Of a stretch of DNA of 64,000 nt, positions 16,508 through 55,318 are shown piece after piece. The notes under the pieces were generated by a model, which worked only from the letters and a program-made list of their open reading frames with translations, was not told the origin of the DNA and ran no database searches. How positions within the stretch are numbered: the first letter of the stretch is position 1; every line of letters starts with the position of its first letter. The position numbers and the translations under genes were made by a program. Source of the stretch: an uncultured archaeon (lineage in GTDB: Archaea > Iainarchaeota > Iainarchaeia > Iainarchaeales > GCA-2688035); the NCBI GenBank assembly GCA_964354805.1, contig CAYHBD010000030.1, forward strand, positions 1 to 64,000. Direction: 5' to 3'.

Positions 16508-17467
16508 TCAGCTTCTTGCAATTGAGGCGATTTCTTCAAGGCTTTGCGCTTTCTCAAACAGGCGCATTTTTTCTGGGTTCGATGCAAAAAACCTGACTGC
16601 CTGTGTCTTCATCCTGCCCAAATAAGCGCTGATGCCGAACTTTTTGCACAATTCAAGGTATTGCAGGAAAGCCTGCTCCCTGGACAGGAGGTTTGCGCCA
16701 TCAGGCGCGCTTTTCCCAAGGCTTTTTTCCAGCGGGAAAAAAGGCTTGTTGCCCAGAATTTCCGCAAAAATTCCGGGATTGCCTATTGCCGCACTGCCAA
16801 CCATTGCAGCATCACAGCCGGTCTTTTCAAGCATTCGCTCAAAGCTAGGCTTGTTGATTACACCGCCATTCCCTATTACAGGAATGCCAACAGCTTTCTT
16901 GACGCGCTTTATTGCCACAAAGTCAACCAGGCCCCTGTTTTCCTGCTTAATGGTTCGCCCATGCACAGCAATTGCCGAAGCGCCCGCTCTTTCAATCTGC
17001 TTTGCCAGCTTGATTGTGCGCAAAACATTAGGGTCAGACCTTATTTTTGCAGTAACAGGCTTTCCAAGGACATGCCAGCAGGAAATGATTTCGCAAATTC
17101 GCGCAGGCCTCCTCAAAAGCGCGACGCCTGCCCCCTGGTTAAGCACATTACCCGAAGGGCATCCCAGGTTCAAATCCAAAAAATCGAATTCCTTTTCAGC
17201 AATAAGCAGTTCAACCGCCTTTTTCATGCTTTCAACCCTTGCCCCAAAAACCTGCATTGCCAAAGGCCTGTCCTCACCGCAGGTCTGGGCAAGCCTTTTG
17301 ACAGAAAGATTGTTCCTTATAAGGGCCTCAGAATTAATCATTTCCGAATAGCACAAGGAAGCGCCCTGCTCCCTGGCCAAAAGCCTGAAGGCAAGGTCAG
17401 TAACCCTGTACATTGGCGCCAAAACAAGCCTGTTTTCCATTTTTGTGCCGGCAATGCTGAAATCCAT
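16508..17467 (-). CDS. dus: tRNA-dihydrouridine synthase (Dus family)
   Basis: LAPM, DLNLGCP, VHGRT, IGNGG; carries a repeat insertion at 16695-16747. Confidence 0.92.
   Translation of the reverse strand: MDFSIAGTKMENRLVLAPMYRVTDLAFRLLAREQGASLCYSEMINSEALIRNNLSVKRLAQTCGEDRPLAMQVFGARVESMKKAVELLIAEKEFDFLDLNLGCPSGNVLNQGAGVALLRRPARICEIISCWHVLGKPVTAKIRSDPNVLRTIKLAKQIERAGASAIAVHGRTIKQENRGLVDFVAIKRVKKAVGIPVIGNGGVINKPSFERMLEKTGCDAAMVGSAAIGNPGIFAEILGNKPFFPLEKSLGKSAPDGANLLSREQAFLQYLELCKKFGISAYLGRMKTQAVRFFASNPEKMRLFEKAQSLEEIASIARS
16695..16747 (+). repeat. Palindromic repeat family copy, antisense inside dus
   Basis: TTTTCCCAAGGCTTTTTTCC-AGCG-GGAAAAAAGGCTT. Confidence 0.8.
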
Positions 17468-18803: not shown

Positions 18804-19316
18804 TTGAACCAGAGCGGACAGGCTTATAGTGTCTTCAAGTTGCTGATTGCCGCAATCATTGCAGTAGCAATCCTTTACATACTTATTTCAATAATCGGCG
18901 GAATCAATATTTTCGGCAGCGATGTTCAAACCGTTGCAAAGCAAATCATTCAAAAGCAGGTTGACATGCCTGGCCAGCTGGACACAAGCACAGCAGCCGT
19001 TTTCAAAGCAGGAACAAACCTGGCGCCAAGCGCACTGGTTGGAAACAGCGGCCTGACCCCAGACCAGATTTGCCTGTATAAGGGTGACCTGGTTGACAAC
19101 CAAGCAGTGGAAGTTACAGGTAGCACACTAATGCAAAACGGGACAACTGATTTAACAGTGAAAATAAGCGTCATGTGCCACAAGGCAAACGCTTTAGTGG
19201 ATGCCCTTGAAGAAGTAGGATTGCCGATTGATTTTGGCGACACAACCACCGGAACTTGTGGATGCAACCTTGATACGCCCCAGAAATGCTGCGTGGTAAT
19301 GCTGAGATTTGCTTAA
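18804..19316 (+). CDS. Pilin-like protein with class III signal peptide
   Basis: MNQSG|QAYSVFKLLIAAII; SD AGGTGA; Cys-rich C-terminus. Confidence 0.75.
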   Translation: MNQSGQAYSVFKLLIAAIIAVAILYILISIIGGINIFGSDVQTVAKQIIQKQVDMPGQLDTSTAAVFKAGTNLAPSALVGNSGLTPDQICLYKGDLVDNQAVEVTGSTLMQNGTTDLTVKISVMCHKANALVDALEEVGLPIDFGDTTTGTCGCNLDTPQKCCVVMLRFA

Positions 19317-19547
19317 GCCCTTCTTTTTCTTTCTTTTTTTTCATTTTTGCTGTTATTGGCTTATCCAAGCTTGTAAGCCAATTAAATTTTCCTGCAATTT
19401 CTTAACTTTGAATACAAAACAATTAGTTTCAATTTACATTCAAAAAAATCGCATTAATAATTTCAATTTTTCAATTAAATGCCATTTAAGCGAAAACCCG
19501 CCTATCCAAAAAAATTAAATATAGCTTTTACCACAATTATTCTTATT

Positions 19548-19721
19548 ATGTTGGCAGTTGTTAAACGGGCGCTCGGCGAGAGGAGGGCTCAGAGTGAGTG
19601 GAGCAGCGTTTACATGCTGATTGTTTTAATTATCGCTGCCCTTCTTTTGATTGCGGTAATAAAGCCGATGTTCAAGCAAAGCCAGAGCATTGTGCAGAAA
19701 ACACAGCCGAAAGCAAGTTAA
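19548..19721 (+). CDS. Small pilin-like protein with class III signal peptide
   Basis: ERRA|QSEWSSVYMLIVLIIAALLL. Confidence 0.65.
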   Translation: MLAVVKRALGERRAQSEWSSVYMLIVLIIAALLLIAVIKPMFKQSQSIVQKTQPKAS

Positions 19722-19838
19722 AGAGCCCGAGGAAAAGGAATCCTTGGGAAAAAAAATTAAAAGGTGCAACTAAAATGCCGAACACAACACTGGCAAAGAG
19801 TGCCCAGGACCCAAAATGAATAATAAAGGTGCAAAGAA

Positions 19839-20660
19839 ATGCTGAACAGAAAAGGCCTTGCGAAGCAATTTTCCCAAAGCTTTTTTTCCGAAGGAAAAAA
19901 AGGCTTAGCAAAGCAATTTTTCCCAGGGGTTTTTTGCACGCGAAGCAATTTTCCCATCTTGCAAAACCCAAGGTTTTGCGAGACCTCGCAAAAGCGAAGC
20001 TTTTGCAAGGAGGCTTTTTTTGCAACGGCAAAAAAAGGCTTAAGCGAAAAAGGCCGAGCTGAAAGCCGTTTTCCCTGGGATTTTTTTGCAACAGCAAAAA
20101 AAGGCCAGGAGAGCGCGCCATTTGAGCTGCTGGTTGCTGTAATAATAATGGGCTTTGTCATATTCATTGGAACAAGTGTAATGCAGCAGGTAAATTGCGA
20201 GAAATGCAAGGGCGAAACCAATGCAAAGCTGGATCGAATGGCAACCGCGTTACAGAATGCTGACGAATCAGGCAGTATTCAACCAAACGTAAGTTTTTTT
20301 TTAAGCGGCTGCTTCAACCAACAGGAAGAAAAAATCTGGATTGAGGACGAAGACGATCCCCAAGTGTGTGCTGCCTATCATTGCGGTGAGAAGCAGTTAT
20401 GCACTTTGCTGAAATACTATGGTAATGGCTGCGGCGGGTTCAGCATCATAAAGTGCCTGGATATCACCCCTGACGCCGATTTTCCTTCCATATCAGGGGG
20501 CAGGTGCGAAGAAAGAGATGGAATGCAATTAGTGGATTTCGAGAAAAGGGAGGAGCCGATAGCAACAGGGGGCAACAAGCAGGGCAACTATTTGCTGTGG
20601 AACAAGACAGGGCAGGGCGACACTTTTTCAACAATCTGCGCTTACAGGAAAGAGGGTTGA
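19839..20660 (+). CDS. Pilin-like protein; signal peptide expanded by an 83-codon repeat insertion
   Basis: MLNRKG-[insert ending KKG]-QESAPFELLVAVII; Cys-rich domain. Confidence 0.8.
   Translation: MLNRKGLAKQFSQSFFSEGKKGLAKQFFPGVFCTRSNFPILQNPRFCETSQKRSFCKEAFFATAKKGLSEKGRAESRFPWDFFATAKKGQESAPFELLVAVIIMGFVIFIGTSVMQQVNCEKCKGETNAKLDRMATALQNADESGSIQPNVSFFLSGCFNQQEEKIWIEDEDDPQVCAAYHCGEKQLCTLLKYYGNGCGGFSIIKCLDITPDADFPSISGGRCEERDGMQLVDFEKREEPIATGGNKQGNYLLWNKTGQGDTFSTICAYRKEG
19857..20105 (+). repeat. Composite array of palindromic repeat units (249 nt, in frame)
   Basis: Several GCGAAGCAATTTTCCC and T-run/loop/A-run-GGC hairpins; AAAAGGCC at both junctions. Confidence 0.88.
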
Positions 20661-20667
20661 TTCAACC

Positions 20668-21330
20668 ATGCTTGGATTCACTTTAAGCAAACTGAATCTG
20701 CTGATTTTGGTGACAGCCTTGTTTGGGATAATTGCATTCTTTTTATTTACGCTAACAGACATGATGGTTGCCAGGTCGGCACAGCAAATGGTCAATGACC
20801 TTGTTGAAAGAACCAGCGGCATTATGACACCGAGCGTTGACTGCTTTGAGGAAACGGTTACAATACCAGAGGAAATAACCTACTTCAGCGGAAAACGCTT
20901 CTATTACGTAATGAAGATATCAAGGGAGCCGGCTGAATACAACTCGGAATATCTAAGCAAATTGATTTTCAAGGTTGCGGCAAGAAAAGAGCAAACCAAA
21001 TTCATTGCAACAAATAGCTATGACATGAATGCAGAAATCATGCTTTACCAATGGCCTGTTGCAGAAATTAGAACTAACCTAAAAGAGCAAAGCAGCATTA
21101 TACTTGATCCAATGAACGAAACTACTGCAAGCAATTCAGTTAAGTTAATAAAAGAGGTTTATAATAGAAAAAATTTCCTGCACGTAATTGCCTGCAATAC
21201 CGACCAAGGGCAGTGTGAAATGAATGAGGGTTATGCAGGCTGCTGCGTAAAAAAATGGAGGGGCGTTGAATCAAGCTGCCTGCCGCCTGCAGAGAATTGC
21301 GAAAACTTGAGCTGCGATACAAGGGGGTAA
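20668..21330 (+). CDS. Pilin-cluster membrane-anchored protein
   Basis: MLG-FTLSKLNLLILV N-terminal hydrophobic helix; Cys-rich tail. Confidence 0.7.
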   Translation: MLGFTLSKLNLLILVTALFGIIAFFLFTLTDMMVARSAQQMVNDLVERTSGIMTPSVDCFEETVTIPEEITYFSGKRFYYVMKISREPAEYNSEYLSKLIFKVAARKEQTKFIATNSYDMNAEIMLYQWPVAEIRTNLKEQSSIILDPMNETTASNSVKLIKEVYNRKNFLHVIACNTDQGQCEMNEGYAGCCVKKWRGVESSCLPPAENCENLSCDTRG

Positions 21331-21335
21331 AAAAA

Positions 21336-21836
21336 ATGAAAAACGGGGGTTTTTTGGGTCCAATTGGGGATGATTTGCCGAGCCTGATTCCGCTGCTTTT
21401 TGCTTTAATGCTTTTTTTTTATGCTTTTACATCTGCTTGGAATAATTTTGACAGGAGGAATGAGGATTTTGCCGATGACCTGGCAGTGCTCAGGGCAAGC
21501 AATGCATTGAGGGGAAACAATTATATTGCGGGAATTGAAAAATTCAATGAAAACTGCGAGACAGCGAAAGGAACCCAGAGAATGCACTTTTTGGCCGGAT
21601 TGCTGCCCTTGCCTACAGGGAAAGATGAGCAATTTGTTGGAATTGATACTGAAAAAATAGTCAGCGGCGATCAAAGCTTTTTTGAAGACTTTCAATGCAG
21701 CAGCACTGAGGAAATACCCGTGCTGGAAAGCGAAAAAAGCGTTGTTAGGTTCTTTCCTGTTGCCTTGGAAACAAAAGAGGAAAACGACAAGTTTTATGTA
21801 AAGCCGATGTTGCTGGTGGTCATTGCATGGAAATAA
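21336..21836 (+). CDS. Pilin-like protein
   Basis: MKNGG-FLGPIGDDLPSLIPLLF hydrophobic helix; ends ...VIAWK. Confidence 0.7.
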   Translation: MKNGGFLGPIGDDLPSLIPLLFALMLFFYAFTSAWNNFDRRNEDFADDLAVLRASNALRGNNYIAGIEKFNENCETAKGTQRMHFLAGLLPLPTGKDEQFVGIDTEKIVSGDQSFFEDFQCSSTEEIPVLESEKSVVRFFPVALETKEENDKFYVKPMLLVVIAWK

Positions 21837-22648
21837 AGCTTGGCGAAAAAGGTCCTGTTTTGCGAAGCCTATTTTCCCCAGGCTTTTGCAACAGCAAAAG
21901 GCTGTTGCGAAGCAAAACCCATTTCCCTGGGATTTTTTGCACGCGAAGCAATTTTCCCAAGGCTTTTTCACGAAGTGAAAAAGGCTTAAGCGAAAAAGGC
22001 CAGTCCAGTTTGACTGATTCCATGTTTTTCCTGGTAATAGCCAGCATTTTGAGCACTTGGCTTTTCTATTCAAGCGCAACCTACGGCCTGACAATAGACC
22101 AGCAAATTTCAAGGCAGGGCAGGGAGGAATACACCAAGTCTGCGCTTGAAACAATTTTGTACAGCAGCGCGCCGAGGCAGGCAGGCCTTTCTTTGGAAGA
22201 AGCATCAGAGATTGACTACCTGCTTGCGGCAATAAAAGAGGACTACGCTGATGACACTGAACTGGATGAAACAAAAGCAATTCTTTTCCAGAACATAAAT
22301 GCCGTAATGCAGCCGCTTGCAACAAACAGCAACTACCTTTTCTACATATATATTGCTCAAAAAAATAAATTTGTTGTCACTTTTTTGTACGCAAGCGAAG
22401 CAAAAAACGATGACGGCTGGAGCTTAACCGGCAACAAAATTGTTTTTTCCTGCGTGCCGCCAAGCAAGCAGGCAGTGGAAGAATTCCTGCTTACGGTTGG
22501 CAGGATGTCTGTCAGCAACAGCAGAATTCAGCTGCTTGAATCAAAAGAGCCGGCTCCTGACAGATACGATGCCCTAATCACTTTAATCACTTGGATTCCA
22601 ACGCCAGTTGATGAAAGCGACCTAAACTGCACTAAATTCACTGGCTGA
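21827..22648 (+). CDS. Pilin-like protein; signal peptide expanded by a 49-codon repeat insertion
   Basis: MEIKLGEKG-[insert ending EKG]-QSSLTDSMFFLVI. Confidence 0.8.
   Translation: MEIKLGEKGPVLRSLFSPGFCNSKRLLRSKTHFPGIFCTRSNFPKAFSRSEKGLSEKGQSSLTDSMFFLVIASILSTWLFYSSATYGLTIDQQISRQGREEYTKSALETILYSSAPRQAGLSLEEASEIDYLLAAIKEDYADDTELDETKAILFQNINAVMQPLATNSNYLFYIYIAQKNKFVVTFLYASEAKNDDGWSLTGNKIVFSCVPPSKQAVEEFLLTVGRMSVSNSRIQLLESKEPAPDRYDALITLITWIPTPVDESDLNCTKFTG
21854..22000 (+). repeat. Composite array of palindromic repeat units (147 nt, in frame)
   Basis: Three GCGAAGC motifs and two GGCTTTT...AAAAGGC hairpins; GCGAAAAAGG at both junctions. Confidence 0.88.
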
Positions 22649-28667: not shown

Positions 28668-29402
28668 CTAAATCCTGAGCGCGAATGTTTCCCTCTTTTT
28701 CTGTTTCCCTGTCCTGTCAACTCCAATCAGCTTGAATGTTTTCGTTGCATCTGTTTTGAATTCTTTTTCCAGCTGCTTTACAGCCAAGGCAGCTGCTTTT
28801 TTTGATCCGACTATTGCATCGATTGAGTTTTTTTTCTGTGTTGCGGAAACAATTGCGGCCAGACCGTCTCTTTTTTGCAGGGATGCGAGCAATTGCCTCA
28901 GCCTGTTGAAAGCAGCAGCTGCTTTTTCCCCCCTAAGCTGCACTATTGCCTCAAAGTAATTGCTTTTCAGCTTCATGCAAGCATCGCACTGCATTGCGGG
29001 AAAAGAGATTGTTGTTTTCCTTTCAACCAGAACAGGCGTGTTTTCAATTACGCCCTTTGCCGTTACGATTGCCTGCATTTCCTTTTCACTCAACCGCTGC
29101 AATTCAACTGACAGGGCAGCATCTGTCAGCTCCTTAACCTTGCATTTTTTTTTGACGAACTGCTTCAATAGTTCCAAGTCAAAAGCGTGCATTTTCCCTG
29201 AAAGCAAAATTTTTCCGCATTGCTTGCAGCGCTGCAACTCGATTTTTTCAGGCAACTGCAGAAGCGTGTGCTCTTTCAGGAAGCACTGGAGGCAGCTGCC
29301 CCTTACAAAAAGGCTGTCTGTTGCACCGCAGCTCGGGCAAAATAATCTGCCCAAAGCCTTTTTGCCTTTTGGCAAAAAGCCTTGGGAAAAGTTGCTTCGC
29401 AT
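28668..29402 (-). CDS. nmd3: NMD3 family protein
   Basis: FCPSCG...CLQC, CKQCG, CDAC...YFEAIVQLR. Confidence 0.88.
   Translation of the reverse strand: MRSNFSQGFLPKGKKALGRLFCPSCGATDSLFVRGSCLQCFLKEHTLLQLPEKIELQRCKQCGKILLSGKMHAFDLELLKQFVKKKCKVKELTDAALSVELQRLSEKEMQAIVTAKGVIENTPVLVERKTTISFPAMQCDACMKLKSNYFEAIVQLRGEKAAAAFNRLRQLLASLQKRDGLAAIVSATQKKNSIDAIVGSKKAAALAVKQLEKEFKTDATKTFKLIGVDRTGKQKKRETFALRI
29354..29400 (-). repeat. Palindromic repeat family copy at the 5' end of NMD3
   Basis: GCGAAGCAACTTTTCCCAAGGCTTTTTGCC-AAAA-GGCAAAAAGGCTT. Confidence 0.85.
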
Positions 29403-29406
29403 CCCA

Positions 29407-30249
29407 TTAACCCACCTTGAGGAATTGCTTTTTTTCAAAGCCAAAGTAGAAAACAGTACTTAACACGTAGTAGTATGTGGCAAAAACTGCCAGCAGAAAC
29501 CTTACCACTATCAATAAGGAAAAAACAGCCAATTGCTGAAGCAAATTCTGTGGCCCTATTAACCATACATCAACGCTTAAGAAAATACTGATGCCCATCG
29601 TTAAAAGAAAAAAAATGAATGCTTTTATAATATTTGTGTTGTGTTTAAACGAAACTGATACTGTTTGCTTAAGTGTTTTGGAAAAATTTAAGTTCTCTAA
29701 AGAGCCAATGGGGTAAATCAAAAAATATATGAATATAAACCAAAAGAACATTGCCAATAAAGCCGCAAAAACCAAGATTGCAGACAAAAATAAATCCCCT
29801 GATAAATAGGATGTGTAAGCAAACCAAGTAAGTGGCAACCAAACAATAAGGATTGCCACCAAAGCGGCAAATAAGGGCATAAAAATTTTTCCGAAGTGAT
29901 GCAAAACATTTTGCAATGCATTCTTAAAAGATATTTTTCTCTTTTTATAATAATCTTGGACCATTGGGGGATACATCGGATTTATAAGAAAAAAATCAAT
30001 CGAATCAACTGCCAGACTGTATAAGGCAATAATAAGCATAGAACCGATTATATCCAACGCCCTACTTAATTCACTGCTGCTCAAATTATATGGATTCAAA
30101 AGGGACGTATCCAATTGAAGCCCGTAATAGGTAAGCAGAATAAATGCAGGCAACTGAAAGAATGCAACCAGAATCTTCGGAATGAACAGTTTGGGGCACA
30201 TTCGCAGCAGAAGAAAGCTGTCAACCATGATTCTGTAAAAGCTCATCAA
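29407..30249 (-). CDS. Multi-pass membrane hypothetical protein
   Basis: About six hydrophobic segments; AT-rich. Confidence 0.75.
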   Translation of the reverse strand: MMSFYRIMVDSFLLLRMCPKLFIPKILVAFFQLPAFILLTYYGLQLDTSLLNPYNLSSSELSRALDIIGSMLIIALYSLAVDSIDFFLINPMYPPMVQDYYKKRKISFKNALQNVLHHFGKIFMPLFAALVAILIVWLPLTWFAYTSYLSGDLFLSAILVFAALLAMFFWFIFIYFLIYPIGSLENLNFSKTLKQTVSVSFKHNTNIIKAFIFFLLTMGISIFLSVDVWLIGPQNLLQQLAVFSLLIVVRFLLAVFATYYYVLSTVFYFGFEKKQFLKVG

Positions 30250-54970: not shown

Positions 54971-55318
54971 CTATTCCTCCAAAATGCTTTTTGACAAAAT
55001 AATCGAATTAACTATGCTGTTAACGCTTGCCCTCAGTGCGGTTGCATCTGATGCATTAATACCTATTTGCACTGCATTGTTTTTAATTTTAACATGTGTT
55101 GCGCTTCTCTTAGCATGCACTGCATTTAATTCTGGACCAATTGCTTTCAAAAAAATGCCTGCTTCTTTTTTCGGCACAGCAATGCTGATGCTCAAATCAA
55201 AGCCTTTTTTGCTTAAGCCTTTTGCTTCGCAAAACCCTTGGGAAATTTGCTTCGCCTGCAAAAAACCCTTGGGAAAAGGGTTTTGCTTACGCAAAACATA
55301 TTCCGGTGAATGCTGCAA
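54971..55318 (-). CDS. pcc1: KEOPS subunit Pcc1 with repeat-derived N-terminal extension
   Basis: PEL...RS...INASDATALRASVNS; TTG start with SD GAGGT. Confidence 0.85.
   Translation of the reverse strand: MQHSPEYVLRKQNPFPKGFLQAKQISQGFCEAKGLSKKGFDLSISIAVPKKEAGIFLKAIGPELNAVHAKRSATHVKIKNNAVQIGINASDATALRASVNSIVNSIILSKSILEE
55202..55292 (-). repeat. Palindromic repeat family copy in the pcc1 5' region
   Basis: Colinear with 21907-22000 but with an altered hairpin tip (TTTTGC-GAA-GCAAAA). Confidence 0.88.

Follow-up and report, generated by a model that had tools for sequence, protein, structure and literature searches.

In-frame hairpin-repeat arrays at the prepilin peptidase site of two archaeal pilin-like genes: a likely case of selfish repeats tolerated in a discarded leader

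In-frame palindromic repeats of about 105–150 bp within protein-coding genes are known from Rickettsia, where they are referred to as Rickettsia palindromic elements (RPEs; Ogata et al. 2000, as reviewed in PMC10969869 and PMC3184786). For archaeal pilins, the peptidase EppA needs a Gln residue at position +1, and the published leader-length limits that we located for archaeal prepilin peptidase are minimum lengths only (PMC4187195). Here we describe two pilin-like genes, gene 1 and gene 2, in a window of 64,000 nucleotides (nt) from an uncultured archaeon of the order Iainarchaeales, in which in-frame arrays of a hairpin repeat occupy the predicted prepilin peptidase site. The window is the first part of contig C30 (CAYHBD010000030.1) of genome G000 (GCA_964354805.1; 1.38 Mb, 49 contigs, completeness 88.5%). 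Relatives of its proteins bear the source names Candidatus Diapherotrites or Iainarchaeum, both DPANN archaea. Taken as one joint reading, we consider it likely that the repeat is a selfish, non-coding, RPE-like element whose AAAGGC/AAAGCC end matches and restores the [KR][GA] site, and that it is tolerated because prepilin peptidase, as we propose, removes the leader.

The features of the two genes are listed in Table 1. Both arrays have lengths divisible by 3, and the sole stop-free frame through each of them is the frame that is used. Array 1 is composed of approximately four hairpin units and a short LSEKG module, and two small hairpins are nested in one of the units (19958–20009). The right copy of its direct repeat provides the regenerated Lys-Gly as well as the first base of the Gln codon, and the cleavage junction reads AAA GGC / CAG at 20100–20108. 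The ATG codon of gene 2 (21827) shares bases with the stop codon that ends the gene upstream, and array 2 is followed by KG/QSS, with the mature part starting at 22001. An earlier, sequence-only reading of this DNA had described two in-frame inserts at the KG/Q junction, each ending AAA GGC and flanked by direct repeats, and this arrangement can be read directly in the sequence. The motif count in the window exceeds that in all of 100 shuffles.

Table 1. Coordinates of gene 1, gene 2, their repeat arrays and further features of the window (positions in the window)
Feature	Coordinates	Strand	Basis
Gene 1, pilin-like preprotein, 273 codons, 89-residue leader	19839..20660	+	ORF listing
Gene 1, remnant of original leader, MLNRKG, GGTG ribosome-binding site ahead	19839..19856	+	sequence reading
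Array 1, 249 nt = 83 codons, 3' end AAA GGC	19857..20105	+	sequence reading
Array 1, left direct repeat AAAAGGCC	19850..19857	+	sequence reading
Array 1, right direct repeat AAAAGGCC	20099..20106	+	sequence reading
Gene 1, mature part, QESAPFELL then hydrophobic helix	20106..20657	+	conserved across order
Gene 2, pilin-like preprotein, 273 codons, 58-residue leader	21827..22648	+	ORF listing
Gene 2, leader remnant MEIKLGEKG	21827..21853	+	sequence reading
Array 2, 147 nt = 49 codons, about 3 units, ends GLSEKG	21854..22000	+	sequence reading
Array 2, left direct repeat GCGAAAAAGG	21843..21852	+	sequence reading
Array 2, right direct repeat GCGAAAAAGG	21990..21999	+	sequence reading
Neighbouring pilin-like gene, ordinary 5-residue leader MNQSG/Q	18804..19316	+	ORF listing, census
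Neighbouring pilin-like gene, short leader MLG/F, no insert	20668..21330	+	ORF listing
Neighbouring pilin-like gene, MKNGG/FLGPIGDD, no insert in G000	21336..21836	+	ORF listing
Repeat insertion in dihydrouridine synthase (Dus) gene, 57 nt = 19 residues, in frame	16685..16741	-	ortholog comparison
ORF, open reading frame.

Both inserts are arrays of the commonest repeat of the genome, which consists of the core TTCCCAAGG and a stem rich in T and A with AAAGGC at its end. With 60 copies, the core is the top-ranking 12-mer of the genome, and a profile search identified 106 units distributed over 92 islands. Three parts make up each unit, approximately 30–60 nt in size: a small hairpin whose loop is of the CGAAG type, the TTTTCCC(AA/TG)GG core, and a stem formed by a T-run and an A-run, the 3' arm of which ends AAAAAGGC; the stems vary with compensatory changes. 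About half of the islands are intergenic, often at the 3' ends of genes or of transfer RNA (tRNA) genes, or beside tRNA genes, and in both orientations, while the remaining islands overlap open reading frames. G000 has 64 copies of the core pattern, and of 22 genomes from the same family 18 contain it, with copy numbers from 0 to 126 (the highest in G016), compared with 0–2 copies per genome outside the family and approximately none for a reversed control. Searches against Rfam gave no matching family for the arrays, only chance-level matches to microRNA and RNAI entries. A test of mirror symmetry one base out of register gave a weak signal of 3.85 versus 3.49 matches of 9, which lies within the permuted maximum; a C-interrupted subfamily of the repeat appears mirrored when inspected by eye. 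Many units abut tRNA gene sequence directly or sit inside it, for example at about position 64835 of C30, just past the window.

The association with pilin leaders extends beyond the window. A six-frame search for class III N-termini, independent of gene calls, gave approximately 27 credible Q-type N-termini in the genome, and arrays are present in eight of these leaders; a ninth array-bearing leader of Q-type has an atypical KGFA/Q junction. All eight retain an upstream M..[KR][GA] remnant, none of the arrays is out of frame, and the insert lengths (48, 60, 93, 102, 147, 147, 165 and 249 nt) are all divisible by 3, for which the probability by chance is (1/3)^8 = 1.5e-4. Intergenic arrays show no 3-periodicity in the distances between their units (2 of 11 are divisible by 3). 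For the roughly 25 islands that lie within genes, 0.01 leader arrays would be expected from target size (Poisson P ~2e-21). Because approximately 4,000 AAAGGC/AAAGCC hexamers in coding DNA are unoccupied, the enrichment goes beyond sequence availability alone, and tolerance of the site must count too. The peptides encoded by the arrays are rich in Lys and Phe and carry a net charge of +3 to +10, which fits a cytoplasmic leader. None of the approximately 13 non-Q class III genes in G000 has an array.

With respect to position, the eight arrays are located at the −1/+1 junction and nowhere else in the leader, and their orientation predicts the residue at −1 (Fisher P = 0.018). The five arrays in sense orientation end AAA GGC / CAG, which places Gly at −1, and in the three antisense arrays AAA GCC forms the beginning and AGA GC(C/T) / CAR the end, which gives Ala at −1, i.e., Lys/Arg-Ala. 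The sequence-only reading had taken the end of the element to resemble Lys-Gly codons, and the canonical unit end and all eight leader arrays agree with that proposal. The repeat end is nearly palindromic, reading AAGGCTT in the forward direction and AAGCCTT as reverse complement.

Almost all of the 40 relatives from the order possess orthologs of both genes, which allows the empty sites to be identified. In the gene 1 orthologs, the leader is six residues long and follows the pattern M-x-x-x-[KR]-G/Q, with empty-site relatives reading MLNRKG/Q, MLNRKA/Q or MLNKRG/Q, and in public protein sets, relatives at 51–83% identity have MLNRKG/Q or MLNRKA/Q without insert. The leaders of gene 2 orthologs are 7–9 residues long, e.g., MEIALGRRG/Q, MEIALSQRG/Q and MALNSRG/Q. 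Two expectations of the sequence-only reading are borne out, namely a short simple leader at the matching position in orthologs, and the genome-wide enrichment of the repeat in class III leaders seen at 8 of ~27 sites. Among strains with filled gene 1 alleles, a 27-residue insert is present at 82–90% identity and a 90-residue insert at 79% identity, so that insert lengths of 0, 27, 83 and 90 residues are represented overall, all in frame and with an identity of 79% or more for the filled alleles. For gene 2, in-frame leaders of 25, 41, 54 and 60 residues occur in proteins that are 88–95% identical, versus 58 residues in G000. Array lengths differ in every close strain examined, and the polymorphism was confirmed at the DNA level on two close-strain metagenome contigs. 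The close strains come from the sites of JGI samples Ga0315275 and Ga0315276. In a close strain, the direct repeat on either side of the gene 2 array measures 17 nt and extends over the Gln-Ser codons (CAGTCC). The ratio of nonsynonymous to synonymous substitution rates (dN/dS) for the mature part relative to a close strain is 0.47 for gene 1 and 0.18 for gene 2, with small counts.

Lengthened leaders of 29 and 34 residues were also noted for both orthologous pilins in the relative G006, which belongs to another genus (L013 2044–2130 and L022 2143–2244). These were considered as a parallel case and rejected: the inserts are GC-rich and do not correspond to any detectable repeat in G006, where they gave only chance matches of 14–17 nt.

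Based on the anatomy of the junctions, we propose the following sequence of events. The terminal hexamer reads Lys-Gly in the forward direction (AAAGGC) and Lys-Ala when reversed (AAAGCC), i.e., the −2 and −1 residues of a class III signal peptide. Guided by short homology, a unit would land at or next to a [KR][GA]/Q junction and rebuild that junction on its 3' side, and later units would nest in the first unit, or add onto it, to produce an array. The array would be translated as part of the leader, and its Lys/Phe-rich, positively charged peptide should remain in the cytoplasm. An A24 prepilin peptidase would then cut at the last KG/Q, the additional 49–83 residues probably being discarded, and with the mature pilin unchanged, the insertion would be near neutral.

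In-frame copies of the repeat occur in housekeeping genes too. In the gene for dihydrouridine synthase, the repeat insertion (Table 1) is located directly after the catalytic Pfam Dus domain, and it is absent from 8 orthologs. The Dus orthologs read AAAAAGCCT at the empty site, and the 57-nt insert in G000 begins at AAGCCT. This filled and empty pair and the leader junctions both fit homology-guided insertion by the repeat end, without proving it. On the same strand, an in-frame unit at 29354–29390 lies between a start codon with ribosome-binding site and the beginning of a CPSCG zinc ribbon (open reading frame 28668–29444), and may be another N-terminal in-frame insertion. Two further in-frame units on the minus strand (55215–55277) are near the start of open reading frame 54971–55318, the true start codon of which is uncertain. 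Candidate in-frame internal insertions were also noted in long open reading frames elsewhere in the genome (C42 28499–31420, C16 62953–64638, C44 6145–7332 and C8 22717–25593), with good coding scores on both sides, and one of these holds two units.

As for the identity of the two proteins as pilins, the assignment is based on their N-terminal motif, on the context of the operon and on source-given names. Both have a basic leader that ends in [KR][GA] at the predicted cleavage site, and the leader remnants end in KG as well. A Gln residue at +1 is followed by a hydrophobic stretch of approximately 20 residues (QESAPFELL in gene 1 and QSSLTDSMFF in gene 2). The operon with gene 1 and gene 2 is maintained throughout the order, and one gene 1 relative is named in its source as a class III signal peptide protein, another as a PulG-like pseudopilin. 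The machinery needed for processing and assembly is encoded in the genome: there are three A24 peptidase genes (PF01478, over cut-off; C16 79636–80001 is an example), one of them within a Q-type pilin cluster, six T2SSE ATPase genes (PF00437) and seven T2SSF platform genes (PF00482). A short leader, of a few to about 30 residues, would be expected for a class III signal peptide; in gene 1 and gene 2 the leaders are 89 and 58 residues, versus 6–9 residues in the orthologs.

The surroundings of the two genes show additional features. In the relative G013, the ortholog of the neighbouring gene at 21336–21836 has one repeat unit in its leader, ending KG/F. A small open reading frame at 19479–19721 contains an internal RRA/QSEW motif followed by a hydrophobic stretch, and is probably a very short pilin-like gene with an internal real start. 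Immediately upstream of gene 1 (19760–19853), the window has 64 bases more than a close strain. In this segment, some 29 nt comprising the ribosome-binding site, the ATG and the first codons occur twice, on either side of a 35-nt filler of single copy in the genome, and the diverged upstream copy of the start region opens a mini-ORF of 14 codons (19775–19819).

Several observations weigh against tolerated selfish insertion as we describe it. Pfam offers no family for the pilin-like proteins, which are not recognised as pilins in that search, and neither protein has an acidic residue at +5: the acidic residues are Glu+2 and Glu+7 in gene 1 and Asp+6 in gene 2, while Glu or Asp occupies +5 in most other Q-type pilins of G000. 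Leaders of 58 and 89 residues far exceed, to our knowledge, every leader for which processing by an archaeal prepilin peptidase is known. Matching sequence does not suffice for insertion, since the leader at C16 80586 already reads AAA AAA GGC CAG and yet is without insert; homology can thus not be sufficient. The flanking direct repeats vary from ~3 nt in Dus to 8 and 10 nt in the window and 17 nt in the close strain, and no mobilising enzyme or parent element linked to the repeat was found in the genome. Two genes for IS200-like Y1 transposases (PF01797) were considered as mobilisers and rejected, as their conserved ends and flanking hairpins are unrelated to the repeat. Finally, the sense strand has five oligo-T tracts (T5–T7) in array 1 and two in array 2, and the predicted RNA fold of array 1 with flanks has an energy of −120 kcal/mol (z = −5.0). 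Because of these tracts and stable hairpins, transcription or translation may be strongly reduced.

The latter features lead to an alternative explanation, in which the arrays are kept for regulation. The oligo-T tracts, which are archaeal termination signals, and the hairpins would then have an attenuating effect on the minor pilins, at the level of transcription or of translation, and gain or loss of arrays would generate strain-level or phase-like variation in the composition of the pilus; removal of the leader would be a precondition rather than the reason for persistence. The tracts and the stability of the array 1 fold agree with such a role, as do the variation in array length among all close strains examined and the frequent location of intergenic copies, in either orientation, at gene and tRNA 3' ends. 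However, copies of the repeat are spread over housekeeping genes and intergenic regions, which selfish spread would predict, and the gene 1 array is absent in the other genera examined except G006, so that no conserved regulatory need is visible. Regulation as the reason for the arrays is therefore doubtful in our view, while a regulatory role in addition to tolerated selfish insertion is possible, the two not being mutually exclusive.

Two further alternatives were considered. One is that the arrays are bypassed, either by translation from an internal GTG or TTG start or by removal from the messenger RNA, for instance by the tRNA-splicing endonuclease. Three antisense arrays elsewhere in the genome do have an in-frame TTG or GTG 6–14 codons ahead of the cleavage site. 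For the two window genes, a start downstream of the inserts had been named in the sequence-only reading as a finding that would overturn it, and there is no in-frame ATG, GTG or TTG within 49 (gene 1) or 32 (gene 2) codons of the cleavage site; the nearest in-frame starts would leave leaders of 49 and 32 residues, and neither has a ribosome-binding site. The array at C16 107146 is without any internal start. Untranslated or spliced arrays would also leave unexplained why 8 of 8 arrays, together with the further strain alleles examined, have lengths divisible by 3 and contain no stops, and in the predicted fold the array flanks are not paired with each other, a pairing that a splice motif would require, although no formal scan for bulge-helix-bulge motifs was run. 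An internal start or removal at the RNA level is thus unlikely for gene 1 and gene 2, and we give this explanation less weight than regulation. The other alternative, that the genes have become pseudogenes through repeat insertion, or that the arrays are artefacts of metagenome assembly, takes its appeal from repeats being classic sites of mis-assembly and from the unusual length of the leaders. On the other side, independent assemblies from other samples have arrays at the same two sites, every allele keeps an intact frame, identity of the mature parts between strains is 79–95% with dN/dS below 1, and the operon is conserved across the order. Together these results argue against either version, which we regard as highly improbable.

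Within the repeat family, one group of units shows a closer relation to the leaders. Units with the palindromic core CCCTGGG are located within class III leaders in 6 of 6 cases in G000, and all except one of them end AAAGGCCAR (Lys-Gly-Gln). Among the five AAAGGCCAR-ending units, four are the unit adjacent to the cleavage site, in four pilin genes on three contigs. When the 40 relatives were searched for units with this ending, the matches were confined to copies next to tRNA genes, apart from two chance hits, and the leader-type sub-lineage is thus seen only in G000 and close strains. We suggest, tentatively and with clear reservation, that this sub-lineage might be specialised on pilin leaders, so that a mobile element would carry its own protease site and home to a protein segment that is discarded, with rapid array turnover varying pilin expression among strains as a by-product.

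If tolerance in the leader is the correct explanation, peptide segments that are discarded post-translationally can shelter selfish DNA as safe harbours. Mis-annotation of such pilins by gene callers and by programs for signal-peptide prediction would then be expected; one relative is annotated from an internal Met. The strains would further provide a natural series of leaders, from 6 to approximately 96 residues, on near-identical pilins, which suits an assay of the upper length limit of archaeal prepilin peptidase.

Like the EppA-type pilins of Methanococcus maripaludis (EpdA-C and MMP1685; PMC4187195), gene 1 and gene 2 encode a leader that is basic and terminates in [KR][GA]; Gln occupies +1, with an acidic residue soon after it and then a hydrophobic helix, and the genome has A24 peptidase genes. 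The differences are that the acidic residue is not at +5, and that the known leaders are short, while those described here consist of repeat-encoded peptide with several internal KG sites.

[quoted passage not shown] The units appear to differ from MITEs, in that no terminal inverted repeats bounding a larger element and no target-site duplication of fixed length were recognised, the flanking repeats of ~3–17 nt differing from a classical duplication in their variability. Unlike the REP system with its associated tyrosine transposase (RAYT), the two PF01797 genes are flanked by their own, unrelated hairpins. Similar to RPEs, the units are short, dispersed, multi-copy palindromes without a gene of their own, and they are inserted in frame and stop-free, the encoded peptide being tolerated, as verified for Dus against its insert-free orthologs and seen in several other genes. 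RPEs are bacterial, with no reported preference for signal peptides; the present units are archaeal and smaller, and have no relationship to the Rickettsia families in sequence or size, which means that the resemblance is functional only and does not imply family membership. Full-text literature searches retrieved no paper that deals with repeats in the leaders of class III or prepilin proteins. Compared with RPEs, and in relation to the literature searched, the new elements are the preference for a cleaved pilin leader and an element end that re-encodes the peptidase site; the units also stack in nested or tandem arrays and concentrate at the one junction that their own end restores.

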